This document shows positions 1,300-37,894 of a stretch of 37,903 nt of DNA, piece by piece (position 1 is the first letter of the stretch; the number at the start of each line of letters is the position of its first letter). The DNA is from Tubiluchus corallicola. Its lineage: Eukaryota; Animalia; Priapulida. Position numbers and translations under genes: made by a program. The DNA lies in NCBI GenBank assembly GCA_030141605.1, contig JAQGDQ010000220.1, forward strand, positions 1 to 37,903, given 5' to 3'. The notes beneath the pieces are model-generated. The model had not been told where the DNA came from. It made no database searches and worked only from the letters and a program-made list of their open reading frames with translations.

Positions 1300-1328
1300 A
1301 TAAGGATCCGCCTTCGTTTGTATACTAA
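1300..1328 (+). CDS. Possible terminal coding exon of an upstream plus-strand gene, (D)KDPPSFVY*
   Basis: Very strong polypyrimidine tract and TTTCAG acceptor, then AT AAG GAT CCG CCT TCG TTT GTA TAC TAA, followed by a long T-rich UTR-like region with AATAAA at ~4709. Upstream exons not identified and frame assumed. Confidence 0.35.
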
Positions 1329-2482: not shown

Positions 2483-2910
2483 GTGGTCGGCAGACAAAAT
2501 TTTGTCGTCGTCATTTTACCCAAAATCGTGCATTCAGTGGCAGATGAGTATTTGCGAAAATATCATTCAAGCCACAAACTCTTTATTTGGCAGTTAACAT
2601 AAAACAAATTTTAGTATTGATATTTTTTACCCAGCCTTATTGCTTACATGTCACTTAGTTGCAACCAAAACCGGTGTTGTTGATATTGTTTTTTTTGCAA
2701 GCTTGTTTGTCCTTTAGTCAGTTAGTTATTTTACGACTTTAGTCATTTAGTCGTTTTACAATTATGTTTGAAATAGTAGATTCGAAAGTCACGTGTGTTT
2801 TACCATTTATATTGTAAGGAGTGTTGATAGACAAACCTTTAAAATTTGTGAGATAAAGTAGAAAAACTGACTGAGGATTTTGTGTAATTTTTTAATTTTC
2901 CACTTTCTTA

Positions 2911-3266
2911 GTCTGTATAAACTTGGTGTAATGTCACTTGGAAAAATTGTAGGTCATAGATTACAAGTGAGTAAAAATAGCTGAGTGGTCATGGTGTTTG
3001 TTTGGCTGTGAAGTTTTAGCAATACCCGGCCTGTCTAGTAAATGGATGACAGGGTTCCCATGGTCAGGAAAATTCCTGGTCTGTATGAACTTGGTGTAAT
3101 GTCACTTGATAAAATTGTTATAAATTACAACTTCCTGGGTCAATTTTTACAAGTCAATAAATATAGCTGAGTGGTCATGGTGTTTGTTTGGTTGTGAAAT
3201 TTGAGCAATACCAGGCCTGTCTAGTAAATGGATGGCAGGGTTCGCACGGTCACGGAAAGTCCTGGA
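2911..3266. repeat. Two-copy local tandem duplication (~168-bp period)
   Basis: GTCTGTAT(A/G)AACTTGGTGTAATGTCACTTG...CAGGGTTC...TCCTGG starts at 2911 and at 3079. Confidence 0.8.
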
Positions 3267-3627
3267 AAATCCTTCAAAATTCAGGCTATCCTGTAAAGTT
3301 ATAGAAAGGTCGGGGGGAAAAGGATAATTTGATAAAAAGTCCGAGAGAATGATGAAAACAATTGACACCAGCATGTTGTACCATTTCCTGGAGAAAAGAC
3401 GGCAGACAAAGCAAAGTATTTTTAAACATTCATTCTTCGTCTTCTAGGGACGCAGTCAGTAGGGTAGAAATTCAGTCAAGTTTCTGTCTTGAAAATTAGT
3501 AATAGTGTCATGTAGATCCGCAAAGTGGACAGAGTGAATGATCATACTAAAGTGCTGATTATTTTATTTTAATCACAAGTGTTTTGTATTTAATCTTATC
3601 AAGTTTTGATGTAAGTTACTCAACCAT

Positions 3628-7203: not shown

Positions 7204-7568
7204 TGGCGGAGATGAGGATGTTGAGATGGATGGTGGGAGTAACAAGAAGGGATAAAATCAGGAAAAGTAATATTAGAGGAACAGTGAAAGTAGTGGAAGC
7301 CTCGAAAAAGATACAAGAGGCAAGATTGCGATGGTATGGGCACCTGAAAAGAAGAGTCGGGGAAGATCACGTGGGAAGGGAGGTCATGGAAATGGAAGTG
7401 CTGGGAAATAGAAGAAGAGGACGACCCAAGTGGAGATGGTTTGAATGTACTAATGGAGACCTTAGAGAGAAGAACATAAATGAAGAGATGGTCAACAACA
7501 GGAATGCATGGAGAAGACTTATTCACAACGGCGACCCCGAATAGGGAAAAGCTGGGAAGAAGAAGAAG
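7204..7568 (+). mobile_element. 5'-truncated RTE-clade LINE 3' end
   Basis: Open frame [18 protein letters not shown]...RLRWYGHLKRR...RRRGRPKWRW typical of the RTE ORF C-terminus; (GAA)n tail; 14-bp TSD ATTA(C/T)GACGGGCGA at 7190-7203 / 7569-7582. Confidence 0.9.
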
Positions 7569-7875
7569 ATTATGACGGGCGACGAGAGCTTTGAAAGCCC
7601 TACTTCTCTTGTCAGTGTATTTTGTCTACAGGTTTATCGAAATCAAAAGTCAAGACTGGCAACAACTTCATTTATGCTTATGAAGATGAATGACTTTACT
7701 AACATAATGAAAAAAGAAGTATTTCGTACAACTCACTACATTTCCAACAAACTCTGAAGCAGGCGTCAAGCAAAAAATTGATACAAAATTAGGCAGAATT
7801 CTATGGACCAGGGAGTCCTAAGGCAGATAAAAAAATCACAAATGTACTACTACAAATGAGAATCTTAATAAAAAT

Positions 7876-8280
7876 TAGAGGTGAGCATTCTCTACCACAA
7901 AGCGAATTCGAATCGAACTGAATTTGACTTTCGAATTCCAATCGAACCGAACTTCAGTGTTTCGAATTCGAACCGAATTCGAATTGAGATTGAACGATTT
8001 TCCAACAAGTTTTCGAACCACCAGCAAAAATTAGTCTTACAAAGATCATGCATATCACTAGATTTTGTTCTACAATAAAACGACTAGTAATTTCTTTACA
8101 ATTGTGTGCAGAAATCACTGCTAAATTATGCTAATTGCACGATGTTTCAATCGTTTTAGTGATAAAGAACATGTCTGATTGCAGTGCTGAATTATTCGAA
8201 TCTATAGTTTTGGATTCGAATCGAGTTCGAACTAAAAAAACTCGTTCGAATTGAATTCGAGCGTTCGATGCTCACCCCTA
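7876..8280. mobile_element. hAT-type MITE, copy 2 (inverted relative to copy 1)
   Basis: Reverse complement of 2107-2482 with a short extra internal segment; TIRs TAGAGGTGAGCAT / ATGCTCACCCCTA; degenerate 8-bp TSD ATAAAAAT / GTAAAAAC. Confidence 0.88.
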
Positions 8281-8452: not shown

Positions 8453-8498
8453 CTAACCCCACAAGTCTTCAGTTCTTCCAAACTTGAATATCAATGCA
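8453..8498 (-). CDS. TMEM50: Transmembrane protein 50 (TMEM50A/B orthologue), coding exon 6 (last)
   Basis: Acceptor tttctttcag; encodes (S)ALIFKFGRTEDLWG*, matching the conserved FKFGRTEDLW C-terminus; phase matches exon 5. Confidence 0.95.
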
Positions 8499-10209
8499 CT
8501 GAAAGAAAAATACAAGCAACGTGTGAAAAACAGTAACCTAACGTAAATTATAGCAAAAAAACATTACAGTTAGATTAGTTTCCATTACTTCGACATAGAT
8601 GGCAGCACCATTTCGTAAATAGAATTCATAGTGCATACGAGTTAATTCGTACAAGTTTCTGGTGGCCTGTTCTGGTAAGTAAGAGGAAACCGTCTGAAAG
8701 CATTACAAGTTGTGAATTAAAGGAAAAGTTCAGTAAAAATAAATTGAATTGAATTGAATTGAGTAAACCCTCCTTACAACAAACTAATTAGAGAAAGGGT
8801 AGTCAGTCCAAAAGATACACTCTGTCCCCTAGATGCATTATTGGAAAAAACATCCATTAAATGGGGAAGTTTACTAGTTTAGTCATTCCAACATGTACTG
8901 CCCTCTGTAGGCACTAATTCAATTCAATTTCAATTTATTTATCTCTTTATAGTGTTACCATTAAACATGATTAATAAGAGAATCTCTAATAAGTTTTGAA
9001 AAATGGTTAAAATGTATAGATAGATCTAGAACTAGAGAAAGGATAGCGAAAAGACTATAAAGTCACCTAGTCTGCTATCCTTTACCGAATATAGACAAAA
9101 AGATTTTTTAGACACTGGTGGGCATTAATGTTATCATTTAATTTAGGAAACATTAGTAATTTTTAAAATTATGACATTTGCTATATAATCCAGAGAAAAG
9201 AATATACATGTAGTTTAATTAGCGGGCAACAAAATAAGGTCAATCTTGATTAAACTAAAAATTGCATTTAGATTTTATGTGAAATACAGGTGAAAATTGT
9301 TATGAAATGATAAAAACACTTTGAGTTAATAATGTTATTAATAAGCTTCTACTAAGCTTCCCTTTAGCTTCTAAACTACCCCATAGCAACAATTGATAGT
9401 GCTGTGTTCAGTTAGCATTTTCTTCTAGCAGTAAAATATGTATAGAGGGCGTTAAAGTCAATTCAAACTGCTGAAACTGAAGTGCAAAAATAAACTAGTA
9501 GCTTATTGCCCTTTGAAACTACCAAATTATGAGAAGCCGGAAGCTGTGGGCAACACTCCGGGAAATATCGGAACAAATTTTTTTGAAGCGCACGTCAACC
9601 AGAACAAATGAGAATGTGACAAATGGGGAGTAAATTTCATAGGGAATTACATAATGTAAAAATGGCCTAGAAACTTATTCAAGTTAATTATAATAATGTT
9701 TTTTTACAGGTCCATCTAATGTGACCAGTAATTGATCAGTCATTAATTGTGTCTAGACTGTGCAGTCAAATGAACAAAATATCCTGCATGGTTAGTTAAA
9801 AAAAGGCCTACTATAGACGTGTGAAAAGAGGGGAGTCGGGATTGAAAACCGGAAGCACTCCACCCTAGGCTTTACTCCCCGCTAGAGGATCACACACTTT
9901 CTTATTAGTCATGGTAACTAGGTATGTGAATAATTATGACACATTCATACAGTAAATGATATAAAACACTGATATGATACAGTGAGTGAATTAAACATAC
10001 TGCTAATGACAATACCGACACGCGTTACACATTGCATTAGCTGCTTTTTACCAGCAGACTGATTTTCGAGCTACGAATTTTTCGAGAAATGCAAACAAAT
10101 CAAATGGCATAAAAGTTAATGATGACGAAAACTTCTAACAAAGATGATGTTAGAAAAGTTAGGAGACACAATCAGAGGATGCGTTCCTGTGCAAATGAAG
10201 TTCTTATTC

Positions 10210-10310
10210 ATCCCATAAGTCTGTGGGAAACTTACCCAAAGAATCCCATAAGTCAGTGGGAAACTTACCTAAAGAATCCCATAAGTCAGTGGAATACTTA
10301 CCTAAAGAAT
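10210..10310. repeat. 33-bp tandem repeat, 3 copies, containing the TMEM50 exon 5 donor
   Basis: CTTAC (GTAAG on minus strand) at 10231, 10264 and 10297 within the unit GAATCCCATAAGTCAGTGGGAAACTTACCTAAA. Confidence 0.9.
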
Positions 10311-10365
10311 ATGAAAGCATTTTGTAAAAAGACGGCAACACCGGGCCACTGGTCCTTATATATTC
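10302..10365 (-). CDS. TMEM50: TMEM50 coding exon 5
   Basis: ttttctag acceptor and GTAAGT donor; 64 nt encoding (G)IYKDQWPGVAVFLQNAFIFF(S), matching the TMEM50 PGIAVFFQNAFIF motif. Confidence 0.95.
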
Positions 10366-10949
10366 CTAGAAAAACAGCAGAAATAGTTATAAGCACGTGT
10401 AACTATCTATGGAGAACGTGTAAAAGAATTTATGTTTAAACTAACAGCATAAACTGTTATGAAAGATGATTTTAGTTTCATTCAAATTATTCAACCAAAA
10501 CTTGCAAATTTTTCATTCAAAACAACCAAAATGCGTCTCAACTACAGCAGCTACGCGACATGCGGGTAAAGCAAAGCTGTTTGCCGCATCAGTTCACGAT
10601 GGTGAAAAATCTTTATAGTGATCATAATAGTAATCTTTATAGTAATCATAATAGTGATTTACTAGCAGAATCTTGCTTGGGAACAAGAAAAAATGAACCA
10701 AGTAAGGTTCTAGCTAGCTGTTAAAACTGTCACTATTACAATAGCATAGAGTGCGAGGCATCGTTAAGTGTACATAAATGAGTTGTTTGGTTCGTTGACC
10801 TTTGACCTTTTTACGATCACCATCAATCACTCGTACCGTGAAAAGGCTTATTAGCAACTCTTCTCACCAAGTGCGTTAGTGTTGCTTAACTGCTGAGCCC
10901 TTTGCTATTTAATGATGACGATAAGAATAATTCACTGACGACAACTTAA

Positions 10950-11469
10950 AGGAAAACCAGACAATTGATTAGATTCAATCTCATTTTATTTACTGTCCAA
11001 AATATACCATTTCATGCCTGTAAAAGTTAGCAATTGTCTTTATATTTGAAAAATTAGCTTAGAAAGTTAATTAACGGCAAGCAAGCACAGCTATTGCTTA
11101 TGTCAGAAACTAACCACAGTTTGTGAACTGGTAAAAGTCTTTCTTGCACGTCAAGCACATTTGCGTAAATGTTACTGCTTCAACGCGTGATGTCACAAAA
11201 ATGTCATGACATCAGAAACTAACACTGCAGTTCATGATCATGGTACCGCCTTCTATTTGTCAGCCAAGCGAATGTGTCAAAAAGGCGCCTTTGCCAATCT
11301 TAGTAGATTCACTGAGCCGCGCGTAACTTTGAAAGTTTAACGAAATTTGAGTATCCGAGGTAATTATTACTTAATCTAAGCTTTGATTTAAAAAAAGCTG
11401 CTGTAGTTTTCAATATTTTAAACAATTCCTTATTCTGAACTCGTGTTTACACAATCTTCCGGTTTTCCT
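10950..11469. mobile_element. Kolobok-type MITE
   Basis: TTAA|AGGAAAACCAG ... CCGGTTTTCCT|TTAA: 11-bp TIR (1 mismatch), TTAA TSD, AG...CT termini. Confidence 0.65.
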
Positions 11470-11815
11470 TTAAAATTTCAAAGGATGAATCAAATGCTTT
11501 ACCCAATGACTTTCAACGACAATTTCATTTCTTCTTTAAACACCTAGGATGTTTCCCAAATATCATCATAGACCCTCGTAATAATGCCTCCCCCCTTCAT
11601 AATGCAAACTCAAAAACATCAAAATTTTTGGCAAAACAAAATGTCCAATTTAGTGCATGGATGCGTGAATTACTGCAACTCATTATAATGCTAGACTCGC
11701 TTGACGCCACTTTTTTGAGCCCCAAAGTAAGAGACATGAAGAGGTTCTGATTGTAAATCTGTGAGTATCTACAGAGGGACTGCTTCGAGTAGAAAATTAT
11801 TGATTTTTTTGCCTA

Positions 11816-12043
<228 letters not shown>

Positions 12044-12216
12044 CTAATGGCAACTCACCATTTTGAAGCGTTGCAGATTATATTTTGCTGAATTCTCTGA
12101 ACAACATCCTCAACGTTGGAATACTTAAGTCACCTTCCAAGGTGAGTTAAAAGCAGAGTGGTCATGGCATTTGTTTTTCAATCACAACTGTGTCTCATTG
12201 GGTTTAATACTCACTC

Positions 12217-12548
12217 TTGGGCGTAGCCAAGTTCAAAAGTTTGAGGGGAGCATGCACATAAAAAAGACGCCGCGACACATACCAAACAATTTTTAATGCA
12301 TTGATTATACATTTTAATTTTGTGTTTAAAATCAAAACACGAGGAAGATACAGTTAATAATTGGGGCAATTTGATTCTTGATTCAATCAGTCAACTTTGA
12401 CAAGTGAGATGCATAAATACACAGTCATTTCAGAAACGCAGGAGGCTGGTTACTCAAATAAACTAATTACTCCATTGTTGAAAATGTATCAATTTTGAAA
12501 AATGTGGTCGGTGAAGTGGTTCTCCCTCCCCTATTAGCTACACCATTG
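12217..12548. mobile_element. Degenerate hAT-like MITE
   Basis: Ends TTGGGCGTAGCC / AGCTACACCATTG; 8-bp TSD ACTCACTC / ACTTACTC (7 of 8 match). Confidence 0.5.
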
Positions 12549-12718
12549 ACTTACTCTCAGTGGTTTCTTTTGCTACACTGATTCAGCCTCTAACAGGAAA
12601 CAGGGAAAATCCATACATACATATATAACAATACACACACACACATATGTATATATATATATATATGTATTGTTACCATACTGTTTCTTTTGTTTCTGAA
12701 ATGAACTAGCGAATTAGC

Positions 12719-12722
12719 ACCC

Positions 12723-12780
<58 letters not shown>

Positions 12781-12874
12781 CTCTCTCTCTTCCCCCTCTC
12801 TCTCCCACTCTCTCTGTCTTTCTCTTCCCTCTCTCTCTCTTCCCCTCTCTCTCCCACTCTCTCTGTCTTTCTCT

Positions 12875-12916
<42 letters not shown>

Positions 12917-12929
12917 CTCTCTTCTCTCT

Positions 12930-12973
<44 letters not shown>

Positions 12974-12989
12974 CTCTCTCCTCTCTCTC

Positions 12990-13053
<64 letters not shown>

Positions 13054-13068
13054 CCTCCCTCCCTCCCT

Positions 13069-13111
<43 letters not shown>
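12719..13111. repeat. Imperfect (CT)n/(GA)n microsatellite, ~390 bp
   Basis: Directly visible; preceded by short (CA)n and (TA)n tracts at ~12615-12670. Confidence 0.97.
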
Positions 13112-13189
13112 ACTTCCACAAAGAATAGAAGACACTCACATATACTAAATTTACATCCCACACCAGGAATACTTCAAACACAAACACTA

Positions 13190-13285
<96 letters not shown>

Positions 13286-13319
13286 TTAAATGCCATAATT
13301 AAAGTTGAAATCCTCTACC

Positions 13320-13449
13320 TTACACACAACAGATGGCATTAGTATACACATATTATACGTTAATGCATTGTTTGATCTGTTTAACTTTACACACAACAGA
13401 TGGCATTAGTACACACATATTATACGTTAATGCATTCTTTGATCTGTTT
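13320..13449. repeat. Two-copy tandem duplication, 67-bp period
   Basis: TTACACACAACAGATGGCATTAGTA...TTGATCTGTTT at 13320 and 13387. Confidence 0.85.
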
Positions 13450-14562
13450 TCTTGTGGGACACTATTTATTGTTTTCTTGCAATACACGATGTTCTTCAAG
13501 ATTTTTAAACAAACAATGGTCCCACAATATAATACGTAATACGAAAACAAAATGTAAGAAGTGTGATTTCTATTTATACAACTTTTCATCAACTGATACA
13601 ATTCGACATGAGGCTTTGCTTGATATATTATCAGCTACATGGAAAAAGGGTCACATATATTACTGCATATTCTATTGTAACTGCATCAAAAAAAAATTGT
13701 ACATATGTATGCTGCATGAGAACGTATGTATACACTATATTTACAATTGAGTGGTTTGGCCCCACCATGTTAAAAACCAACTGTTACTTACTACAAACCT
13801 CTTGAAGCAGATTGAAAATTGTGAAAACAGACAAAGGCAAAGCTTGCTGACCACTGGTCAACAACAAATAACAACGGACAGAGTGGTGAAGTATTCTTAT
13901 TTTGAGAAATGTTTTCAGACAAACGGGAGAATTTGGTAGCTGTAAATCTAAATGAAATCAACTTCGTGCTTGAGTCATAAGTCACTTATTTCACATGACA
14001 CATTTACAATAGTTTCATGTACAATATCTAGTGAAAGGGCCTACAATAAACGTAATACAAAACAGAAATACTGCACAGGAAAAGCCTCAAACACTGTTCA
14101 CTTATATACGAAGGTAAATGTGTTGCGGGTAATCAGAAAGCAGGGCTTATTAGATTGTCCCACACAGTATGTAGGTTTCTTCCATGGATGTTTGCGAACA
14201 GACAAAAGAACTGACAAACCTGTCAATAATATGGCACAGGTAGGTGTCATGTTTCTAGTATAAATTACCACTTATTTAGTTTATCAATAGCTAAACTATG
14301 ACAATGAAGTGCAAAGTAGAGACGATGGAAGATGAAATATTTGTTTATGTGCACAGCTTCATTATTAATAATGAGAATTGCAAATGTATCAATTACAAAA
14401 GTTAATACTAGGTAAACAAGTAAGTACTTACTTACTAGGTAAACTAGACAGTTCATATGCAACTATGCAAAGGATACTGTGAAACAGCTGCATAATGCAA
14501 TAAGCATAATGCTAAACGAGTTTAACTATTGAAAAATAGCTTTCGTGAATATAGAAACTTGT

Positions 14563-15322
14563 AAAAAGGTAGTGAATTTGATGATACGGCGATGCTTTTC
14601 TACTGATAAAGAGACTCCATAATTTCAGAAGTGAACATCCATATGGGAAATAGTAAAAAGGCAGTGAAATTGATGGTACAGCAATCGATGGTTTTCTACT
14701 GATAAAGAAACTCCATAATTTCAGAAGTGAACATCGGCATGGGAAATAGTAAAAAGGCAGTGAATTTGATGATACAGCAATCGATGGTTTTCTACTGATA
14801 AAGAAACTCCATAATTTCAGAAGTGAACATCGACACGGGAAATAGTAAAAAGGCAGTGAATTTGATGATGCAGCAATTGATACTTTTCTACTGATAAAGA
14901 GACTCCATAAATTCAGAAGTGAACATCCATATGGGAAATAGTAAAAAGGCAGTGAAATTGATGGTACAGTAATCGATGCTTTTCTACTGATAAAGACACT
15001 CCATAATTTCAGAAGTGAACATCCATATGGGAAATAGTAAAAAGGCAGTGAATTTGTTGATACAGCAATCGATGGTTTTCTACTGATAAAGACACTCCAT
15101 AATTTCAGAAGTGAACATCCATATGGGAAATAGTAAAAGGGCAGTGAAATTGATGATACAGTAATCGATGCTTTTCTACTGATAAAGACACTCCATAATT
15201 TCAGAAGTGAACATCGATATGGGAAATAGTAAAAAGGCAGTGAATTTGATGATACAGTAATCGATGCTTTTCTACTGATAAACAGACTCCATAATTTCAG
15301 AAGTGAACATCGACACGGGAAA
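14563..15322. repeat. 96-bp minisatellite, 8 copies
   Basis: AA(T/A)TTCAG recurs at 14621, 14717, 14813, 14909, 15005, 15101, 15197 and 15293. Confidence 0.95.
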
Positions 15323-15571
15323 CAGAATGAATAACTTTTCGTTCACGAATGGTTCTCTCAAAGCTGACTATGCCTGGTTCACACGTGAATACAGTCAACA
15401 CCGGCAGAATGAATAACTTTTCGTACATGAATGGTTCTCTCAAAGCTGACTATGCCTGGTTCACACATGAATACAGTCAACACCGGCAGAATGAATAACT
15501 TTTCGTACATGAATGGTTCTCTCAAAGCTGACTATGCCTGGTTCACACATGAACACGGTCAGCACCGGCAG
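15323..15571. repeat. 82-bp tandem repeat, 3 copies, spanning the GPCR start codon
   Basis: ATGAATAACTTTTCG at 15327, 15409 and 15491. Confidence 0.95.
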
Positions 15572-16405
15572 TTTGAAATTGGTATTTTAGTGTTCATACT
15601 TATAGCAGCAATATCTGGGAACAGTTTAGTCCTGTTAGCCGTCTACAAAGTTCATTATCTAAAAACAAGAACAAATTACTTAATCGCATCTTTAGCCGTC
15701 ACAGATTTGACAGTTGGAATCGGTTTAGTAGGTGTAATTCTATCCGTTACCTTGACGAATTACCGACTGTTTATTGTGACACGAATGATACAGATTATAC
15801 TGGCATGTGCAAGTATATATCATATCGTTGCTATAACAATTGAGAGATACATAGCAATTATTTACCCTCTGAGATACAATGTAGTCATAACCGAAAGAAC
15901 TGTAAAGTTTATGATCGCAGCTGCTTGGTCGACATCCATCTTACTGGAGCTAACACTGCATACCTTATACCACAGGATGATCGCCAGGAGTTTTACGCTT
16001 AAAGTAGCGGTCGTAATCGTACATGGATTTTCTATGTTATTTGCACCAGCAATAGCTATTGTAGCTATGTATCTTAAGATATGGAAAGGTGTGAAGAGAC
16101 AGAGAAGGATGATTCGCATCAGTAACAACGAGGAATCTTTACCAATGAGAGAACTACGAGCAACGCTTACGCTCTGCATCGTGACGGGTGTGTTTATTGG
16201 CTGTTGGTTGCCAGGAATGATAGACACGCACTACAAAATGCTGATTTCTAGTTTTTGGGGAATGAATAAGTTTCTGGCTGCACTGGGTTTGTTTAACAGC
16301 TGTCTGAATCCTGTTATTTATGCTGCCAGCAATTCCCGGTTCCGGAAAGCTTTCGTGCAAATAATGTCCAGAAAAAATAATGCAAATGTTTGTTTAAGTG
16401 AATGA
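15491..16405 (+). CDS. Class A (rhodopsin-like) orphan GPCR, single coding exon, 304 aa (324 aa if the in-frame ATG at 15431 is used)
   Basis: Seven hydrophobic segments with GN (TM1), LAVTD (TM2), ERY (TM3), W (TM4), P..Y (TM5), CWLP (TM6), NSCLNPVIY (TM7) and FRKAF (helix 8); N-terminal sequons NFS and NGS. Nested antisense in the TMEM50 intron between coding exons 2 and 3. Confidence 0.93.
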   Translation: MNNFSYMNGSLKADYAWFTHEHGQHRQFEIGILVFILIAAISGNSLVLLAVYKVHYLKTRTNYLIASLAVTDLTVGIGLVGVILSVTLTNYRLFIVTRMIQIILACASIYHIVAITIERYIAIIYPLRYNVVITERTVKFMIAAAWSTSILLELTLHTLYHRMIARSFTLKVAVVIVHGFSMLFAPAIAIVAMYLKIWKGVKRQRRMIRISNNEESLPMRELRATLTLCIVTGVFIGCWLPGMIDTHYKMLISSFWGMNKFLAALGLFNSCLNPVIYAASNSRFRKAFVQIMSRKNNANVCLSE

Positions 16406-17052
16406 ACATAATTTGTTAGAGATAATGTTTGTGTAAACAATGTTGCAACACAAGTGCAAATGCTCGCTTAAGTCAGTGAACATACAACTTGTTAGAGATA
16501 ATGTTGTGTAAACACTGCTGCAACACAAGTGCTAATGCTCGCTTAAGTAAGTGAATGTACAACTTGTTAGAGATAATGTTTGTGTAAACACTGTTGCAAC
16601 ACAAGTGCAAATGCTCGCTTAAGTAAGTGAACATACAACTAGTTAGAGATGTTTGTGCAAACAATGTTGCAACACAAGTAGAAATGCTCGCTTAAGACAG
16701 TGAACATACAACTTGTTAGAGATAATGTTTGTGTAAACACTGCTGCAACACAAGTGCTAATGCTCGCTTAAGTAAGTGAACATACAGTTTGTTAGAGATA
16801 ATGTTTGTGCAAACACTGTTGCAACACAAGTACAAATGCTCGCCACTTGAGTCAGTGAACGTACAATTTCTTAGAGATGTTTGTGTAAACACTGTTGCAA
16901 CACAAGTGCAAATGCTCGCCGCTTGAGTCAGTGAACATGCAGTTTCTTAGAGATAATGTTTGTGTAAACACTGTTGCAACACAAGTACAAATGCTCGCTG
17001 CTTGAGTCAGTGAACATGCAGTTTCTTAGAGATAATGTTTGTGTAAACAATG
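16381..17052. repeat. 73-79-bp minisatellite, ~9 copies, starting across the GPCR stop codon
   Basis: (G/C)TTAGAGAT recurs at 16415, 16491, 16566, 16642, 16715, 16791, 16870, 16946 and 17025. Confidence 0.93.
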
Positions 17053-17613
17053 CAGCTTCCTATCGTAGACTGTTTTACAAATTTTTTTTGTTATTTACAT
17101 TCACATATTTTCCTAACAAGCTCATTACTTAAACGCATGCAGCTCATTACTTAAACGCATGCTATTATAACATGAGAGTAACTCCTCATGAAAGAGCAAT
17201 TTCTCATTTCTATTATAACATGAAAGAAACAATGTAAATTCATTCAGTTGCATTCCAGGAGCAAAAATCAATAGTGCTTGGCTACGTTAAAAGGTTCGGT
17301 TATCTTGTAGGAGAAAATGCAATAACATTTGGCTCATAAATTAAACAGTTTATGTGGTTTATTACTTGCAGTTCTACAGCGTTTCTTTAATTAAAATATG
17401 TTACCAGTTTTGTGTTTGTGGCAGCTAAAATGCAAATGAGGTGAATGCTGCGACTAACTAGTAAAAGGAGAGAGTTTTATCAACTGAAACTCTTGTGTTT
17501 TATCAAAAAGAATTTGATCTAAACGTGATAAAAACAATGAATCATCGTGGCCTGCCTATAGCTGCAGCTGATTGTCGTCTGAAGGTTTAGTTGTGCTACA
17601 GTGATCTGGGTTA

Positions 17614-17964
17614 GTAATGAGACGGTGAGAGTAAGGTCCACAAAGATAGAGGTCAGACCCGCTCTAATCTATGGGCTGGAAGCAGCTTCTCTAAGAAAGA
17701 CCGAAGAGAAGAAAATGGGTGTGGTGGAGATGAGGATGTTCAGATGATTGGTGGGAATAACAAGAAGAAATAAAATTAAAAATAATAATATCAGAAGAAC
17801 GGTAAAAGTAGATTGCGATGGTATGGACACCTGAAAAGAAGAGTCGGTGAAGATCATGTGGGAAGGGAAGACATAAATGAAGAGATGGTCAACAACAGGA
17901 AGGCGTGGAGAAGACTCATTCACAACAGCGACCCCGCATAGGGAAAATCTGGGAAGAAGAAGAT
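17614..17964 (+). mobile_element. Internally deleted RTE-derived retroposon, 5'-truncated copy
   Basis: Homologous to 20778-21268 and 7204-7568; (GAA)n tail; TSD AGTG(A/G)TCTGGGTTA at 17600-17613 / 17965-17978. Confidence 0.88.
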
Positions 17965-18164
17965 AGTGGTCTGGGTTAAATGGCGGGCTTCTTCATAGAG
18001 GAGAAGTGCAGTAAATGAGATTTTTGTGTTTAAATGAAGGCAAAAAATCATCATTGAAATGAAACAAGCAAAGTTAAGAGAAAAAACGTGTGAAATCATT
18101 AGCAACGTTAAAACGAAACATCGTTAAGCGGGGAGTCATTAACCAACAACTTATTGTATGGGCA

Positions 18165-18324
18165 TGCAGAGTACAATAGCTATACGACATGCAGTTACTA
18201 AACTTGCAGAGTACAATAGCAATACGACATGCAGTTACTAAACTTGCAGAGTACAATAGCATTACGACATGCAGTTACTAAACTTGCAGAGTACAATAGC
18301 TATACGACAAGCAGTTACTAAACT
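18165..18324. repeat. ~40-bp minisatellite, 4 copies
   Basis: Unit GCAGAGTACAATAGCWATACGACATGCAGTTACTAAACTT. Confidence 0.9.
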
Positions 18325-18673
18325 CTTAGCTTGTTTATAGACACATGTAACAGTAGATATAATTGTTATTTCTGTTACCAGTTACAACAAAAAGGGAAGT
18401 AGTTATAGTTACACGTCAGCTCTAAAAAATCACAACTCATCGCGCATGTACTTCGTTACTCTCATTACTGCTATGTGTAGGGAAATAAATATTATATGTT
18501 TGCTTGTATAGCAAAATCGTCCATAAGTTAGCAATTAAGATTTTCTTGTTATTCACATATCCTGAATCTTCATTTCATGAGGATCATTTTGATTCCAAGT
18601 TCAAAGCTCTATATTATTTCTAAGGTGACATAATCCATGTTGAAGTTGAGGTGCAGGATACACAGTTAGTTAT

Positions 18674-18750
18674 CCATTGTTTTTGTTAGCCATTGTTTTT
18701 GCTAGCCATTGTTTTTGTTAGCCATTGTTTTTGTTAACTATTGTTTTTGT
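18674..18750. repeat. 16-bp tandem repeat, ~5 copies
   Basis: Unit GCCATTGTTTTTGTTA. Confidence 0.85.
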
Positions 18751-19228
18751 CTCATTTCTACAAAATACTTAGCAACCGCACAAATGTAGGCTGCTATAAA
18801 CTTTGCAAGAGCAGATTGGAGTTATGTACAAATCCAGTAGATGGCTCTTCCTGACAAAGAACCGGGTTTGGCAGCAGAAAAAACCGAAAGCAAAACCCTT
18901 GCTTCCACAAGGTACTATCGGAGTTTGAAAACACAAGTTTTTTTACAATTGCATTACTAGTATCTAGCCACACAAGTGGACCTGGAGTTACCGAATTAGA
19001 TTTTTAGTATTTTTTGAACATTTCCTTCATAATTTGATGCTAGAATATAAAAGTACAATACATTTAGCATTTGTTTTTATAAAAAACAAAAAGTTGGCAT
19101 TACAACAAATTTTTGGTATATTCTACTTTGAGGTGCCCATCATAACGTAGTTTTAACTATGCCGACTTACGGACTGTTTTGGTTTGAAAGCACACATATG
19201 TAATCAACATAAAAAGAATTTTTCTTAC

Positions 19229-19338
19229 ATAAATAATGCTAAGGTACCAATCACGCCGCACGTGTAGTAAGTGTTGTTGAATTCTGTATTGTCATAACGG
19301 GCGGCAACGTCGATAATGATCCACCAACCAGTGAAAAA
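19229..19338 (-). CDS. TMEM50: TMEM50 coding exon 2
   Basis: gtttcag acceptor and GTAAGA donor; 110 nt encoding FFTGWWIIIDVAARYDNTEFNNTYYTCGVIGTLALF(M). Confidence 0.96.
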
Positions 19339-19550
19339 CTGAAACACAAAAATGAGGCAATTTCCACATGAAACTGTATAAAGCAGACATTTGAATGTGC
19401 AAGAAACTACACCGTACGATGTTGATCGAGAATCACTCCTCTTTTTAAAAAGTTCCTGCAAATAATTTCTAGAAAGAAATATGGAAATGCTTAAGCAATG
19501 TAGACTGAGAATCATTTGTATTTTTCAAATTCATCAATTCAGAAAACTGC

Positions 19551-20035
19551 AGCCGTTGCCATGTTACCAAATGTTGATTGTATGTTGTTTACTGTGTTAA
19601 CTGGACGAAGCGATGGTTGACCACTTAGATGACAAAGCTGGCAAAGATGCTCAAACATTCCACTTTTGGATACTGTTGCATCAGGGCATTTTTTACTTTT
19701 TTCGACATTAATTGTCTTCCATAGGCCAACTAAATCACTCATAGAGACCATTAATTTTACAGTATCAAATATTTTATTAGTACTTGTTACTAGCCGTTGC
19801 CATGTTACCAAATGTTGATTGTATGTTGTTTACTGTGTTAACTGGACGAAGCGATGGTTGACCACTTAGATGACAAAGTTGGCAACAGATGCTCAAACAT
19901 TCCACTTTTAGATACTGTTGCATCAGGGCATTTTTTACTTTTTTCGATATTAATTGTCTTCCATAGGCCAACTAAATCACTCATAGAGACCATTAATTTT
20001 ACAGTATCAAATATTTTATTAGTACTTGTTACTAG
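19551..20035. repeat. Two-copy tandem duplication, 241-bp period
   Basis: AGCCGTTGCCATGTTACC...GTACTTGTTACT at 19551 and 19792, with a few substitutions and indels. Confidence 0.92.
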
Positions 20036-20775
20036 AGCCTTAAAGCACAAGAAAACCCTTCACTTATGTAAAATTCGTCTTGAAATCTTATGCTACTTAC
20101 ATGCTGTCCTATTGCACACAGGGTTTGCGTTAGCAGTAACGCTGTACAAAACTTGAAAATTTAAACTCCCGCCCACTTCACTAACTAAGCAATATTTTAA
20201 ATTACCCTAGCGTCAATAAGATTAGAAATAGGTTTTTTTGGTTTGTGAGTAGTGCACCCTGGAGGTGAGTCAACGATATTTTATCAAGTGGCGAGAAGAT
20301 GTGAAATTATTCAGAATTTTCTTTTCTAGTTACACAAGTTTTTCAAGCAGGAATGGGAAAGTCTAAGTAACACAACTTTGCATGGAAAGTTTTTTGGGAC
20401 ATAGTTTAACATTGCCTTTGTACGACATGTGCAATGGCGCAGTCGGAGCAGTATCATGGGAGATTTAAAATGAAACCAATAATTATCTTAATGCAAACAT
20501 GATATGCGCAAAAAATTGATATAAAGTCATATACATTCTTAAAGGCGATTTTTCTAAAACCTACTTCAGGTACCCATTTTCCTGTCCTTTAGCATTTTTC
20601 ATTTAACATGTTTTATACGTATCAAAATGTAAACTACATAATAAGATAAAAGAAGTCATGTAGTAGTAAATGTATAGCCACTTGCAGTATGTAAGAGAGA
20701 TGACTAGTGATAGTGTACCAAAGATTTGAAATGATAAATGGTGGAATATACATGGTTATTTAGAATTTTAAAGCC

Positions 20776-20851
20776 AACCTAGCCACTGGGGGGGGGGGGA
20801 CAGTCCAACTCAGTGCCGGTCCCAAGCCTGGAAAAATAGGGAGGGTTAGGG
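20776..20851 (+). ncRNA. Twister ribozyme core (P1-type, 3' cleavage-product form) at the 5' end of an RTE-derived element
   Basis: AA, P2 CCUA/UAGG, GC pseudoknot strand, P3 CACUGGG/CUCAGUG, P4 CCGG/CUGG closing loop UCCCAAGC, AAAAA linker, GAGGG. Order and conserved residues match the twister consensus as recalled; the P1 5' strand is absent. Confidence 0.8.
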
Positions 20852-21268
20852 TCAGGAAGGGCATCCGCCTGTAACAACTGAGCCAAAACCTTCTATGAAT
20901 GAGTCGGTGAGACTTAAAGGGAAAGTCCACAAGGAAGTGGTCAGACCCGCTCTAATCTATGGGCTGGAAGCAACTTCTCTAAAGAAGACCGAAGAGAAGA
21001 AAATGGGTGTGGTGGAGATGAGGATGTTGAGATGGATGGTGGGAATAACAAGGAGATAAAATTAGAAATAATAATATCAGAGGAACAGTAAAAGTAGTGG
21101 AAGCCTCGCAAGATTGCGATGGTATGGACACCTGAAAAGAAGAGTCGGTGAAGATCATGCGGGAAGGGAAGACATAAATGAAGAGATGGTCAACAACAGG
21201 AATGAGTGGAGAAGACTCATTCACAACGGCGACCCCGCATAGGGAAAAGCTGGGAAGAAGAAGAAGAC
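20778..21268 (+). mobile_element. Apparently full-length non-autonomous bipartite RTE-derived retroposon (~490 bp)
   Basis: Perfect 18-bp TSD TTAGAATTTTAAAGCCAA (20760-20777 / 21269-21286). RTE-like 5' UTR (twister plus GGAAGGGCATCCG) is fused to the ORF C-terminal region ([20 protein letters not shown]...EMRMLRW) with deletions; (GAA)n tail. Confidence 0.9.
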
Positions 21269-21869
21269 TTAGAATTTTAAAGCCAAACACAACCGAAGGA
21301 AATTGGAAAAGTTGGACTAAACCTGGATTCGTACCACAAAGCCTTGAGCAATAAAAAACCTAGCAGAATAATACGTATAAAAGAATTTATCTAAAATTTT
21401 CTAATAGTACATACATACTTGCTCTAGGTCCTCATAACATTGATTTTAAATACGTAATGGTTAAATTGTTATTTAAAGATAGTCACGTGTGTCTCTTCTT
21501 TCCCATTATTGAACATTATTTTATTATAACCAACACATTCGTATAACGTTCAATTTTCATTCGTCTTAAATGCAAAATCTGATAATTTTTAATTCCCTGC
21601 TACATGCGCATTAACTAATTAATTATATTGGTAACAATCCTGAGAGGGTGGCTGACCTCGATAACTTATAGTTCTTTCGCCACCCTTTCACCACTAATCA
21701 ATAAATACTTTTGCACTTTGTAATATTATTGTATGTTGAACAGATTTATAAATCTGTTAGTTATGAATTTTGCTATTTCAAAAATAGTGATAAACTAATA
21801 AACTTACTTACTTACATGCTATATTTCACCAAGAGTAATTATGTACCACAAATGAGCAGCCATACTTAC

Positions 21870-21968
21870 CAAAAATCCGGCTGACACGGAGGCTAATGCA
21901 TTTCTCTTCTCAGTCAGATCAAGCCATTCACAACTTGGAAATCTGAAGTTATCTAAACAGCCGGCCAT
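21870..21968 (-). CDS. TMEM50: TMEM50 coding exon 1 (start codon)
   Basis: [33 protein letters not shown] followed by GTAAGT; the EKRN..AS..AG.L motif is conserved. An acceptor (tttttccag) at 22009-22010 implies an upstream non-coding exon. Six exons total 480 nt (159 aa plus stop). Confidence 0.93.
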
Positions 21969-22199
21969 CACGACATAGCTATTGACAGAAGTAGCAGAAG
22001 ACGAAACCCTGGAAAAACTAAAAACATAACAACCAATATTAAAAAAACCATTTAACGACGGTGCCAAATTTATTTGTTTGTTTTTAATTAATTATGACTG
22101 TGACTGCCAGAACTTTTTATTAACTAAGTGGTACCAATCGGCTGTTGTAATTAAATTACTTTTTACTATCGTCATAAGTATTTTGCAACTCCATTTTAT

Positions 22200-23350: not shown

Positions 23351-23528
23351 GTCACTAAACCATTCAATGAAATAGCAGCATTTGTGCAATAAATTGAATT
23401 GAAAATTGTTAATTTATAGAATTTGAAATGCTTTCACATTCAAATAAATTTATATTATAGTTTATTTCCCAAACGAAGTTTCCAATAATAATAACAATAA
23501 CATCAATCTACTTATATAACTCACACTC

Positions 23529-23885
23529 NNNNNNNNNNNNNNNNNNNNNNNNNNNNNNNNNNNNNNNNNNNNNNNNNNNNNNNNNNNNNNNNNNNNNNNN
23601 NNNNNNNNNNNNNNNNNNNNNNNNNNNNNNNNNNNNNNNNNNNNNNNNNNNNNNNNNNNNNNNNNNNNNNNNNNNNNNNNNNNNNNNNNNNNNNNNNNNN
23701 NNNNNNNNNNNNNNNNNNNNNNNNNNNNNNNNNNNNNNNNNNNNNNNNNNNNNNNNNNNNNNNNNNNNNNNNNNNNNNNNNNNNNNNNNNNNNNNNNNNN
23801 NNNNNNNNNNNNNNNNNNNNNNNNNNNNNNNNNNNNNNNNNNNNNNNNNNNNNNNNNNNNNNNNNNNNNNNNNNNNNNNNNNNNN
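23529..23885. other. Assembly gap (357 N)
   Basis: Run of N. Confidence 1.
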
Positions 23886-26349
23886 TTTAATTTCTCAGTC
23901 GCACTCCCAGAAATAAAGCAGAGATCTTCGACAACCTAACAGTGGAAACCTAGCTGCGCTTGAATTCGACAAGGTTTTTTTACCTATCTCACGCTTTAGT
24001 TAGTACTGACCTGACATCACTCAGTCAGTACGTCATTTATAGCAGTGGCAAAAAATTAGGTCGACATAAGTTCGAACCTTCTTGTGGTATTTAATTGACG
24101 TACACTCCATCACAAAACATTCTAAATACTACCTGCTTAAGTTATCACGAGGTAAATTTGCACATAATAATTTGCAACTCAAATTTTACAACATTCTAAT
24201 AAATTTATAATAATTAATTGTCATTTATATATGCGGTGCTTCATTATGCTAGTTCGCGGCTTTGGTAGGCCAGATCCGACCTTATTTTTGTTAAGAAGAA
24301 CTTTAGGCAAGAGGTAAAAAAATAGTTATTCGCTTGAGCTATAATTAAGTTTTAGATTTGCAACATAACAAACACAATGTTAATCACCCCCATCGAAAAG
24401 TATTCTATCACAATTATTCAAAAAGATCACGGAGTTAAAAATGTTCCACACAAGTTTCAATTTCACTTATTTTGTATGGTGGCCATTCTGATGCAACGTT
24501 TACTAGACAATAATGCAAAACTGCAAAAAAATATATTATTGATGGTCATCCATCCATTCACTAGCCCAACTTAATGTTAAATAACTTCGTTTATTAAGTA
24601 CACACTGTGACCACTGAACTACTTTTCCTAAAGCAACAAGAATTTTACAGACAAAAATTAAAACTTATTGCTTTTTAAAAAAAAGCTAGTGTTAGATGAA
24701 AGTAAATTAACTAATTTTGTAAAAAGTAACAAAACATAACAACAAATAGAATTTATCAGACTGGTTAACAATCGTAAGTAAACAATGATTTCTTTGCTTC
24801 TTGATTTTTATTGTTGTGGCACGCGTCGAGAAGTCATACAGCAGTATTAAATTATGGATCTTTGACGACTTAATTATTACTTCATTAACAGTAAGTTTTA
24901 TGCAAGTCGCTCCCAAACAAAGTCAGCAACACATTTAAAAAGCAGTCGAAACGCAGGCTTAGTGCTCACCACTTAACAACTGCCTCCGAGTAAGAGAATT
25001 ATCTTTAAATTAAATTTCTGCCTGTAGGTAGCGCAACAACCACAAAAGTACAGCAGACAACACGCCATGGCAGTCAACAAAGTTTATTCAAAGTAAAATG
25101 TTCTGCGTGTGAAGCAGAATTTAGTTTTCTAATTAGAACAGCTACCTTGTCACACGTTTATTTGAATTAAACCTATTATTAGCTTTTTAGTCTGTAAATT
25201 ATGGGTAAGTTTAAAACATTTTTGAACAGTTAACCATCACTATTATTATCTATCCATCGCGAAAAATATCGGTAAGCTTTAAAGTAGAAAAAAACTAATA
25301 CTTTCAATGATTTGTAGGTATGTTATTACTATATTTTTGCGTGGTTGGTTGCCCGATATTCCTTAATAACAGAATTATTGAATTTCCTTGTTTTTATCTA
25401 TGCTAATTAAGTAGTTTCCAAAATCTATTTTTACCCACAATCTGTGAGTAGGCCTACATGTATCAGGATCACGCTGATAGTAATCGATCAGAGCTATTTT
25501 AACAAATGACCTAAACTGGTGAGCTTTACAGTAATGATCATGCAGTCGCCTACAGTATGTCAGTGATAGCGGGTGCAACAATAATAAATGCACTGATGGA
25601 ATATCAATTTCAAAAATTTAAAGACAATTAAATTTGTGGGAAAAATTACTTTACATTTCTTCATATCTATCCATTGTTACAATTAATGTGTGGATTTTTC
25701 AAAGGGTGGGAGACGTTGGTATTAAACAACAATTATGTCATTTAAGAACTTTCTGTGTTTTAATGTTTAAAATTTAAGTTAGGTTTAATTATTTTTAATT
25801 CATCACTGTAGTTAGCAAATAAGCAAAGTTTTTTCAGTGTGTTCACCCACAGTTTAATATTAGCTGCATTCAGCAACCTGTTGAAAGTGGCCTAAAATTA
25901 CTGACTGTATGGTAGCGCCACTTCTCTGCAGGGGCTTCTCTTTGAAGTGAATGAAGCCCAGCCACTTAGCATTGAGTTGCATTCTCTTGGCAAAAGTAGC
26001 TCCTGTTATAATTGTTGCTCTTGCAAGTTTTGAACTGTGTTTCTAACTGTTTTATTGTTTCAAGATAAATGATAATATGCAAATTTGTGTTTCTGAATCT
26101 AAGCTACTGTTTGTTTTCAGGAAAAATTGTGCAGCACATTAATGGATATGTCTGTTCATTAGAATAATTGTGCGTGTGTGTACACGTGTTAAAACTAGTA
26201 AGATATACTTATTCTACTAATACTGAATATGCAATAGGAATATGTAACAACCAAATGTGCTTAGGATGGTATGTGTACGTGCCATTATTTGACGATGGTG
26301 GAGCGTTGATTGGTGCATTTATTAGTCATTGAATTTGTGTAAAATTGTT

Positions 26350-34952: not shown

Positions 34953-36135
34953 CACCATGTGATCCTTAATGTAATTGACGTCAAACATATTGCTCTATCG
35001 CTCCGCCCCCGCTGCAACGTAAGCATGCTAAGCAGCTAGCAACAAGTAAGTTCAACTAAACAACATAACAGTCACAACTAATGTCTAATCAGCAGATAAA
35101 CTGATTGCTCTTTTTCATAAACACAAATTTGCGGAGCAGCACTTATTTTTCAATGAAATTAACACTTCAAGTAGCCAAAAATGACTTTTCAATTTAAACA
35201 GAATATAGAGACGAAGTTTCAAAGCACTACAAAATACAGTGACATAAGTATAATAAAGAAACTAAGCCAATTGGCCTTGCTTTACAATAAATGAATTACA
35301 AAAATATTAAGTCTCTCTTGCCTTTAAACATTCGAACATCAAGCCTGCGATGTATTTTTTTATATTAATTAATCATGTGCTCGTCTGCAAGATTTATTAA
35401 GTTTTTGTATTTTTCCGTTTGTCAGGCTACGGAAATGAAATAAATTTGACTGTTCCATTCCATAGACGACTCTTATATTGAATGTCTGAGTTACATAAGT
35501 CCCAATGGTATCTTTTAACCATGATTACAACCGGAAAAGTAGCGTAAAATTACCTAATATTACATTGATATACAATATAAGTTTTGACCACATTTGAACT
35601 TTTGATTGTGAAGATCTCGTTGAGGTTTATAAAAACTGGCCAGAAAAGAAAACATTTTGTTTTGCCCTTATTTAAAGTTAATTAAATAGTTGTTTTTATC
35701 TAACTTGCAAAGCCATAGATAGACTAAAGTAAATTGTGTATTTTCTTGATTGCAAAATGGTTTAATCAGCAACTCATAGACGTAAGCCTTGTGCATTTCT
35801 TCCTATAAACAAAACAAGACTATATATTTCCAATAATTCACTTGCAATTTCAGTTGACGATATTAAAATCTAGAACCAAGCCAATATTTCTCCCGCTTAC
35901 TAATGAAAAGTTGAGCATTTTTCACAACAGTGTTAAACGGAGCTGTAGCTAAACGTCCCGAATGTACCCGCTGCAGGGGTGCGTGAAATAACTTGCACGC
36001 TGATTGGACAGTCAAGGAAAATGATTAACATTATGTTAGACGTTGACTAATTAATCATCTTAAGTGCATGCCATCAGTTATGCCTTGCAAAATTAACTGT
36101 CAAACAATGCTTTGAATCCATTAAACAATAACATT

Positions 36136-36409
36136 GACCAGAGGGTTTAGTCTAGTGGCAACGCGCCCGCTTTCCATCTGGGAGGTCGTGAGTTTGATAC
36201 AGCAGCCGGGTCATACCAGACTTTATAAAAATGGTACCTGCAATTACCCTGTCAGGGGCATGATATTTACGGTAAAAGTGGGGTAATAATAGTCTTTGTT
36301 ATGTACTTCTAAGTTGTTATTTACAAGTGACGATAATTAATAGCTGTTTCACCTAATGTTAATTGTTCGTCCAAAAACCGAGTTTAAATAAATATTATTA
36401 TTATTATTA
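36136..36409 (+). mobile_element. tRNA-derived SINE (MetaSINE-like), copy 2
   Basis: Colinear with the reverse complement of 403-693, more diverged, (TAT)n tail. Confidence 0.85.
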
Positions 36410-36486: not shown

Positions 36487-37152
36487 GGCGCTATTACACT
36501 TTCGCACCGCCTAGCTTTTCCTGGCCTATTGGTTGTTTTCACGCCTGCAGGCCAGAAAGCAGACCAACAGGCGTAATATACACCATATTCCCATAATATT
36601 ATTGCGGCGTACGCTTTATAAGTCCAGATTAAAATAATGCATTACTTACCTACAGCCGCCATTAAAAGCTGCACGTGAATAACCGTGTTTACATCACTGC
36701 TGCGCAGTCGCTCTCGCGCATTGACGTGATGGCCCTTAACCTGTATTTTTAGTTTCTTCGCATAATTTATGATTATTAGGGTTGCATCTACGAGAGTTTG
36801 TATCGTATCGCGGGTGGGCCTGGAACGGAACAGTTATTTATCATTAATTTTATTTATTGCTGTAGTATTATTACTATTAGATTATAAAAAAAGTAAAGGT
36901 TTTTTCTTTATTTCGTAAATGCGGTGAAGATGAAAGTGTGTCACGTGCTTTTAAGCTAGGCCCTGATAATGCATAAACTAGTACGAAATTCGTCACGTGA
37001 CTACACACACAAACAAGATGGCGATACTGTGTCGAACTGTGAATACAGCGTAATTATTGGTAATTATGCCTAAATAGGATTAAATTACAATTAGATTAGC
37101 GGAAACATTCACTGATGACGTAAGAATAATAGAATGATGACTTACGAGCCTA
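36487..37152. mobile_element. MITE copy A, truncated at its inner end, inverted relative to copy B
   Basis: Starts with TIR GGCGCTATTACACTTTCGCACCGCCTAGCTTTT; reverse complement of 37210-37893. Confidence 0.85.
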
Positions 37153-37155
37153 TTA

Positions 37156-37894
37156 GGGCGCTATTACACTTTCGCACCGCCTAGCTTTTTGTAGGTTATT
37201 ACTCGTTTTTAGGCTCGTAAGTCATCATTCTATTATTCTTACGTCATCAGTGAATCTTTCCGCTAATCTAATTGTAATTTAATAATATATTTAGGTATAA
37301 TTACCAATAATTACGCTGTATTCACAGTTCTACGCCTATACAGGGCGTATCGCCATCTTGTTTGTGTATGTAGTCACGTGACAAACTTCGTACTAGTTTA
37401 TGCATTATCAGGGCCAAGCTTAAAAGGCACGTGACACACTTTCATCTTCACCGCATTTACGAAATAAAGAAAAAAACCTTTACTTTTTTTATAATCTAAT
37501 AGTAATAATACTACAGTAATAACTAAAATTAATGATAAATAACTGTAGTCGTCTAAAATAATTTCCCGCGATACGATACAAACTCCCGTAGCTGCAACCC
37601 TAATAATCATAAATTATGCGAAGAAACTAAAAATACAGGTTAAGGGCCACGCACGTCACTGCGCGAGAGCGATTGCGCATCAGTGATGTAAACACGGTTA
37701 TTCACGTGCAGCTTTTAATGGCGGCTGTAGGTAAGTAATGCATGATTTTAATCTGGACTTATAAAGCGCAAGAAGCAATAATATTATGGGAATATGGTGT
37801 ATATTACGCCTGTTGGTCTGCTTTCTGGCCTGCAGGCGTGAAAACAACCAATAGGCCAGGAAAAGCTAGGCGGTGCGAAAGTGTAATAGCGCCC
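37156..37894. mobile_element. MITE copy B, complete (739 bp), possibly PIF/Harbinger-like
   Basis: Perfect 34-bp TIRs GGGCGCTATTACACTTTCGCACCGCCTAGCTTTT; left flank TTA, right flank ACA (no clean TSD). Confidence 0.88.

Follow-up and report, generated by a model that had tools for sequence, protein, structure and literature searches.

A predicted twister ribozyme core heads an internally deleted RTE-type retrotransposon family in the priapulid Tubiluchus corallicola

Introduction

To our knowledge, no role has yet been assigned to the majority of eukaryotic twister ribozymes. In the window, the whole stretch of 37,903 nt of Tubiluchus corallicola DNA that was analysed, a sequence with the architecture of a twister core starts at position 20776, at the left target-site duplication (TSD) of a short retroposon. 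The locus raises the question of whether self-cleavage set the 5' end of this element, and of what kind of element carries such a ribozyme. The preliminary description of the DNA had pointed to twisters at the 5' ends of RTE elements in Schistosoma. This precedent is real: in Schistosoma mansoni, the RTE-clade LINE Perere-3 was described as carrying T-variant twisters at its 5' end (Liu 2021, PMC8501958).

The only retrotransposon study of twisters that we found in the open literature covers one LINE in one parasite. Within the same literature, neither a twister-headed non-autonomous RTE element nor a twister-RTE junction outside Schistosoma was found. In a single sentence, a 2026 paper associates retrotransposons, autonomous as well as non-autonomous, with hammerhead, delta-like and twister motifs; in its available text, the sole title on twisters among references 21-26 is that of Liu 2021 (PMC13725137).

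Results

The putative twister core contains every core element of the type-P1 architecture (Table 1), with the AA (20776-77) and G20841 both preserved. In the Rfam covariance search, the twister-P1 model RF03160 matched 20771-20849 over its full length (model positions 1-68) with 46.2 bits, corresponding to an E-value of 5.7e-9 on 801 nt and of 2.7e-7 on the whole window, while the remaining seven of the eight Rfam matches in the window had E-values of 0.067 or worse. The score is 21 bits lower than the gathering score of 67.2, and at the gathering threshold the whole window gave 0 matches. Compared with the model, the difference lies in the missing 5' strand of P1, with mismatches at three of the model's four P1 pairs. 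A search for the 16-nt L4/P4 pattern gave a single match in the window and none in 100 shuffles. The match and the complete set of core pairs support the assignment of 20776..20845 as a type-P1 twister core, which, with P1 absent, is filed as a T-variant rather than as a canonical twister. The twister identity claimed in the preliminary description is thereby upheld, as are all the pairings and coordinates it had named (P2, GC, P3, P4 and GAGGG); the twister-P1 search it had proposed gave a match, albeit one below the gathering score.

When four stretches were folded for minimum free energy (MFE), none stood out as stable (z 0.19 to 1.25) and the core was not recovered; nested folding of this kind is uninformative for a twister core because of the double pseudoknot. 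In the nested ensemble computed with ViennaRNA, which cannot score pseudoknots, P2 and P4 had pair probabilities of 0.0, and an alternative fold paired the 5' strand with the purine-rich 3' strand.

The twister heads a 493-nt element that lies between perfect 18-nt TSDs, a direct repeat with a chance probability of ~2e-7 for a 60x60 search. The last two bases of the left TSD are the AA of the twister, a 2-nt microhomology in which AA is common to target and element. The TSD had previously been placed at the twister; the perfect repeat does adjoin the scissile site, with the refinement that the AA lies within it. In the element, the 5' UTR of an RTE-type LINE is joined directly to the last part of the LINE's ORF, and a (GAA)n tail follows. 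The coding sequence corresponds to residues 840-986 of P0002, a protein of 987 aa with endonuclease and reverse transcriptase (PF14529/PF03372 and PF00078); the endonuclease (APE) and reverse transcriptase (RT) domains are absent from the 493 nt, and only ORF residues ~840-986 remain. Judging from this 987-aa relative, ~2.5 kb would have been deleted between the start and the end of the ORF. One contig of sequencing run X4 (see below) runs left of 20909 into upstream RT sequence, which therefore places the large deletion at 20908/20909. The best named relative of the ORF comes from the mud crab Scylla paramamosain (81%, with 120 of 130 proteins listed). RTE elements are characterized by a single APE and RT ORF of ~1000 aa and a short-repeat tail (for Perere-3 see PMC8501958). 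The architecture supports the assignment of the parent LINE to the RTE type.

Table 1. Features of the window around and beyond the putative twister core.
Feature	Position	Strand	Basis or remark
Interspersed repeat, twice, opposite orientation	424-695 and 36134-36409		83% identity
Interspersed repeat, twice, opposite orientation	2107-2455 and 7932-8280		95% identity
Copy C, 5'-truncated copy of the parent-type LINE	7204..7569	+	9-nt TSD
TMEM50/UPF0220-family gene	8456-22008	-	exons near 21870-22008, 19228-19338, 11880-11972, ~10301-10402 and 8456-8563
96-nt tandem array, 8 copies	14561-15322	-	open 276-aa frame, weak THAP-domain similarity (E 1e-4)
Open rhodopsin-type GPCR frame, 324 codons	15431-16405	+	PF00001, E 2e-31; nested antisense in TMEM50 intron; 82-nt tandem repeat overlapping the start
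Copy B, 5'-truncated member of the deleted family	17616..17963	+	no ribozyme; 9-nt TSD
Host intron, GT..AG, TMEM50/UPF0220-family gene	19339..21869	-	translation and splice sites
Left TSD, 18 nt	20760..20777	+	100% identical to 21269-21286
Type-P1 twister core without P1 5' strand	20776..20845	+	core pairs and Rfam match
Order of core elements: AA, P2, GC, P3, P4/L4, P2', GAGGG	from 20776	+	
Predicted general acid and general base	A20776 and G20841		roles after PMC8501958 and PMC11662667 (available text)
P2	20778-81/20837-40		4/4 pairs, all Watson-Crick (script check)
Pseudoknot 1, GC with loop GC	20782-83/20826-27		2/2 pairs (script check)
P3	20784-90/20809-15		7/7 pairs, one G.U (script check)
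P4	20816-19/20828-31		4/4 pairs, third pair G.U (script check)
Pseudoknot 2, CCC/GGG	20821-23/20843-45		3/3 pairs, intact (script check)
G-quadruplex motif	20839-20861	+	canonical, four tracts
Orphan P1 3' strand	20846..20851	+	pairing check against flank
Rest of RTE 5' UTR	20852..20894	+	first 14 nt are part of the pattern that found L001-L004
ATG and ~4 codons, likely ORF-start remnant	20895..20908	+	in frame with the last part of the ORF
3' end of APE and RT ORF	20909..21242	+	interrupted by deletions of 2, 16 and 90 nt when compared with copy C
Short 3' UTR and (GAA)n tail (21254-21267), then an extra C	21243..21268	+	
Right TSD	21269..21286	+	18-nt direct repeat
Assembly gap (N), 357 bases	23529-23885		spurious ORF cluster 23461-23939 arises from the gap
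Self-inverted repeat, 1.4 kb, foldback- or MITE-like	36487-37893		91% identity

Two further copies in the window relate the short form to its parent. Copy B has the fusion of UTR and ORF and the 90-nt deletion in common with the copy at 20776, while copy C retains the 90 nt in an open 113-aa frame that is 81% identical to P0002. The 5' and 3' ends of the LINE are thus joined by an internal deletion that is common to independent insertions, copy B having its own TSD. Other copies were read from public contigs of four sequencing runs (X1-X4) from at most two samples, X1-X3 being one sample and possibly the window's own source. Two further runs, X5 and X6, contained almost none of the element's sequence words and do not enter the counts, and no RNA run was among those listed as carrying the sequence. 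Among the contigs listed, at least seven that differ at 7-14 letters extend across the fusion, and the depth is of the same order on both sides of the fusion point; the short form is therefore a family, and this twister appears to be carried mainly by it. At 20829, contig depths added up to 1,450-3,200 times that of the flank, a value that is not a copy number and that we read as many copies.

The majority of the family has C at 20829 and T at 20833, which is nearer to the Rfam consensus than the copy at 20776, as well as C at 20804 and extra letters near 20797-20800. Overall, the copy at 20776 departs from the majority at 10 of 40 listed substitution rows and by small deletions, ~2-3%; the changes at 20829 and 20830 would fit CpG decay. 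Compensatory changes among copies, which the preliminary description had expected to be informative, did not appear within the family at a share of at least 1%, with only four variable sites in 20735-20865.

The contigs also record where the copies begin. Loose ends exactly before 20776 were seen in three runs (X1, 16 contigs; X2, 15; X4, 11), with upstream sequences that are long and mutually unlike; among the six rows listed for X3 there was no loose end before 20776. The consensus agreement of these flanks was 0.45 (X1), 0.48 (X2) and 0.51 (X4). Simulated unrelated flanks agree at 0.41-0.44 with the composition of the window and at 0.46-0.48 with 74% AT, and element-internal loose ends at 20801 agree at 0.80-0.86. 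Hence the AA is common to the copies and nothing upstream of it is, which excludes a longer shared 5' end. The next heterogeneous 5' junctions among the rows listed are at 20788 (3 contigs, X2) and 20807 (2 contigs, X4); five of the 16 pieces listed start at 20776, and some family copies begin at 20779 or 20788. These loose-end figures refer to the rows listed, with 367 and 23 further rows outside them, and the variable G run breaks contigs. Behind 21267, 3' loose ends of other copies were found in 24, 34 and 29 contigs. No empty-site joint was present among the 15 joints listed out of 19, and X4 is without cover of the right flank; neither is evidence in one direction or the other. A 5' end at the scissile site, as originally suggested, and the pile-up of junctions at the same AA that an alignment of copies was expected to reveal are thus both seen, in three runs and two samples.

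More distant relatives were searched for in metagenome and viral contigs with a pattern made of the twister core and the UTR motif behind it. It found four loci (L001-L004) in metagenome contigs and gave 0 matches in viral contigs. All four match twister-P1 with 40.3-44.7 bits and all four lie on RTE-type elements, which is a biased sample of twisters, as the pattern included the element's own UTR motif. L001 has an ORF of 1003 aa (461-3469) with an RT domain and a weak endonuclease match (APE, E 0.012), and L003 an ORF of 1019 aa with an RT domain and a clear endonuclease domain; a weak PHD-finger match (E 9e-4) directly follows the RT domain of L001. To judge by inspection, L002 and L004 seem to have lost internal sequence at different points, suggesting that short derivatives arose independently. 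The ORF ends of the four loci are 31-39% identical to that of the window element. In a stem comparison of five sequences, P2 shows compensatory changes relative to the copy at 20776, at pairs 2 and 3 in L001 and L002 and also at pair 4 in L001; in L003 and L004, part of the P2 pairing is lost. L001 and L002 have a single A at the junction, and none of the four loci has a TSD of at least 8 nt there; 0-1A variants without TSDs are known (Liu 2021, PMC8501958).

The four G3 tracts of 20839-20861 are not kept in L001-L004, and the G-quadruplex motif is therefore not treated as a conserved switch. A distal P3 hairpin with the loop AAGCCA is present in L001 (165-310), in L003 (3167-3315, minus strand) and in the family loose-end consensus, with differing stems, and is lost in the copy at 20776 (20795-20808). 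This conserved auxiliary loop may have a role.

The host gene was recognized by Pfam UPF0220 (TMEM50 family) matches to three collinear minus-strand frames out of 37 frames scanned; one short exon was not located within 8456-22008. The element, on the plus strand, sits antisense within an intron of this gene, from which it receives no sense transcription, and therefore cannot cut the host pre-mRNA. For the same reason, the copy at 20776 is probably not a source copy. Neither this antisense position nor the origin of the carrier as an internally deleted RTE family had been part of the preliminary description. Read-through from the receptor frame, 4.4 kb upstream on the element's strand, is possible. 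All three copies in the window (the copy at 20776, B and C) are antisense to TMEM50, a number too small for a claim of bias. A scan for bacterial promoters and terminators was at chance level; its bacterial models are not relevant to animal DNA.

Discussion

We consider it highly probable that the element at 20776 belongs, in slightly decayed form, to a many-copy family that derives from an RTE-type LINE by internal deletion and that starts exactly at the predicted twister cleavage site; the copy was likely reverse-transcribed from self-cleaved RNA. Given the observed anatomy, the TSD at the scissile site, the family structure and the pile-up of 5' junctions, the following course may be proposed. 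A source copy would be transcribed by read-through from a host promoter, and the twister would cut at N^AA, with the flank giving a weak or absent P1, to free an RNA that starts with 5'-OH AA. The endonuclease/reverse transcriptase of a partner LINE would then recognize, in trans, the retained 3' end and the (GAA)n tail and prime at a genomic nick (target-primed reverse transcription). Copying would reach the cleaved 5' end, where the 2-nt microhomology of the AA would help to join the target, and the TSD would come to lie directly at the scissile site.

Shared 5' junctions might also come from an internal promoter that starts at the first base of the element, the twister being a vestige or serving only in structure or translation. 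Junctions would pile up at a common start site too, some LINEs have an internal promoter (PMC8501958), and the chemistry of a 5' end is invisible in DNA contigs. The start would, however, have to match the scissile site to the base, and the junction carries no extra G. Moreover, catalytic bases and pseudoknots are kept across elements with ORF ends as divergent as those of L001-L004, and the equivalent Schistosoma ribozymes do cleave, giving 5'-AA (PMC8501958); we regard such an origin as unlikely. That a single deletion, after insertion at this locus, turned a full-length LINE into the short form, with no mobile family, is far less probable still. This reading could draw on the fact that, among the contigs listed, none spans the whole element, but copy B shows the same fusion and 90-nt deletion between its own TSDs, and at least seven divergent contigs bridge the fusion with depth of the same order across it. 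[quoted passage not shown] Many RTE-mobilised SINEs are of this size and have a bipartite RTE part (PMC5786205), yet the first bases of the element are the AA of the twister, ARAGORN found no tRNA in the window, Rfam gave no tRNA, 5S or 7SL match here, and the heterogeneous flanks upstream of 20776 contradict a shared head. A ribozyme in this position would also remove any upstream head, as Kojima notes (PMC5786205).

A retrotransposition from cleaved RNA leaves room for the individual copy to be active or inactive. The P1 stem closing L1 is absent from the copy at 20776, where the strand 20846-51 pairs with the flank at two of six positions in the canonical register. A shifted P1 (20766-71/20846-51, 6/6 pairs with 3 G.U, shift of 3 nt) reached only -0.2 kcal/mol with a pair probability of 0.0 and was set aside, the same helix being found in 4.8% of random flanks. 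A mini-twister was reportedly described by Kosutic (2015), whom McKinley (2024) cites. According to the available text of McKinley 2024 (PMC11662667), P1 imperfections do not lower twister cleavage and P1 is dispensable, all four bases are tolerated at position -1, and imperfections in P1, P2 and P4 are tolerated, P4 being sensitive mainly at pair 4. In Schistosoma, cleavage was shown for variants with C^AA, G^AA or A^AA, and up to four P1 mismatches are allowed in T-variants (Liu 2021, PMC8501958). The copy at 20776 has C20775 at position -1 and an intact P4 pair 4. The earlier suggestion that it may be inactive unless P1 is supplied therefore stands as to the absence of a canonical P1, whereas the need for P1 is weakened by the published dispensability (PMC11662667) and by C^AA cleavage (PMC8501958).

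Both catalytic bases and both pseudoknots are kept, and the balance tips slightly towards cleavage of this copy in vitro. That the family mechanism is right and this copy catalytically dead, which is compatible with our preferred explanation, comes close to an even chance while falling a little short of it. A dead copy would accord with the missing P1, the G.U in P4 and the partial loss of the distal P3 hairpin, with the private changes at 20804, 20829 and 20833 and the letters missing near 20797-20800, and with a nested ensemble, blind to pseudoknots, that disfavours P2 and P4. The four-tract G3 motif overlaps the 3' strand of P2, the catalytic G and a pseudoknot strand, P3 contains a run of 12 G, and the G-rich 3' strand could form a G-quadruplex. 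On the other hand, the G-tracts also belong to the family majority (no differences are listed there), and the family has spread; the sensitive P4 pair, the pseudoknots and the catalytic bases are intact, and the tolerance of stem imperfections (PMC11662667) and the cleavage of C^AA variants (PMC8501958) also speak against a dead copy.

The reading of the element as a ribozyme-processed LINE derivative places it between known systems. Like Perere-3, as described in the available text of PMC8501958, it has a twister core at the 5' end, a TSD directly against the AA, an imperfect P1 made by the flank, no site specificity and a short-repeat tail; Perere-3 1A copies without TSDs resemble L001 and L002. 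Unlike Perere-3, the carrier has 493 nt and neither an endonuclease nor an RT domain, the tail is (GAA)n instead of GTAA, P3 is long with a G run, and activity is predicted only. With the bipartite non-autonomous RTE LINEs RTESINE1/2, WALLSI3, RTE-N2_Lch and Bov-A (Kojima 2018, PMC5786205) it shares the origin as an internal-deletion derivative that retains the 5' and 3' ends of an RTE LINE, but it differs from their published descriptions in retaining ~330 nt of coding sequence besides the UTRs. In the available text of Kojima 2018, the word twister has 0 occurrences and only HDV-like ribozymes are cited for RTE.

The R2 SIDEs, short internally deleted elements that are processed by an HDV-like ribozyme (reviewed in Weinberg 2019, PMC6765202), are likewise non-autonomous deletion derivatives whose 5' end comes from an inherited self-cleaving ribozyme and which are mobilised in trans, as would be the case here. 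In contrast to the R2 SIDEs in that account, the ribozyme here is of the twister class, the partner LINE is APE-type and has no fixed site, and the strand upstream of the ribozyme changes with every insertion. The element thus works like the Perere-3 T-variants and belongs to the bipartite non-autonomous RTE-type elements, a combination not found in the open literature searched. In the tables of Liu (PMC8501958), as far as available, 18.6% of 813 T-variants are without a downstream domain, and these could hide such short elements; the tables of McKinley may include the ribozyme of this organism.

A many-copy family with 5' junctions at the scissile bond amounts to a genomic record of past cleavage in vivo. 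It also offers a natural experiment, as one core has been placed behind many P1 strands: does the quality of the flank-made P1 predict offspring or purging, and does sense or antisense orientation in genes predict the fate of a copy? Standard annotation misses such loci because all five that were scored (40.3-46.2 bits) fall below the Rfam cut-off of 67.2. We are mildly inclined to a wider view, in which P1-less twister heads would be an ancestral, portable generator of 5' ends in a broad branch of RTE elements reaching far beyond Schistosoma. Time and again, they would have given rise to 'twister SIDEs', which as short non-coding parasites are more numerous than their parents and are able to become source copies behind any host promoter. 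Such elements, hidden by the Rfam cut-off as every insertion erases P1, may explain much of the unexplained abundance of twisters in animal genomes.
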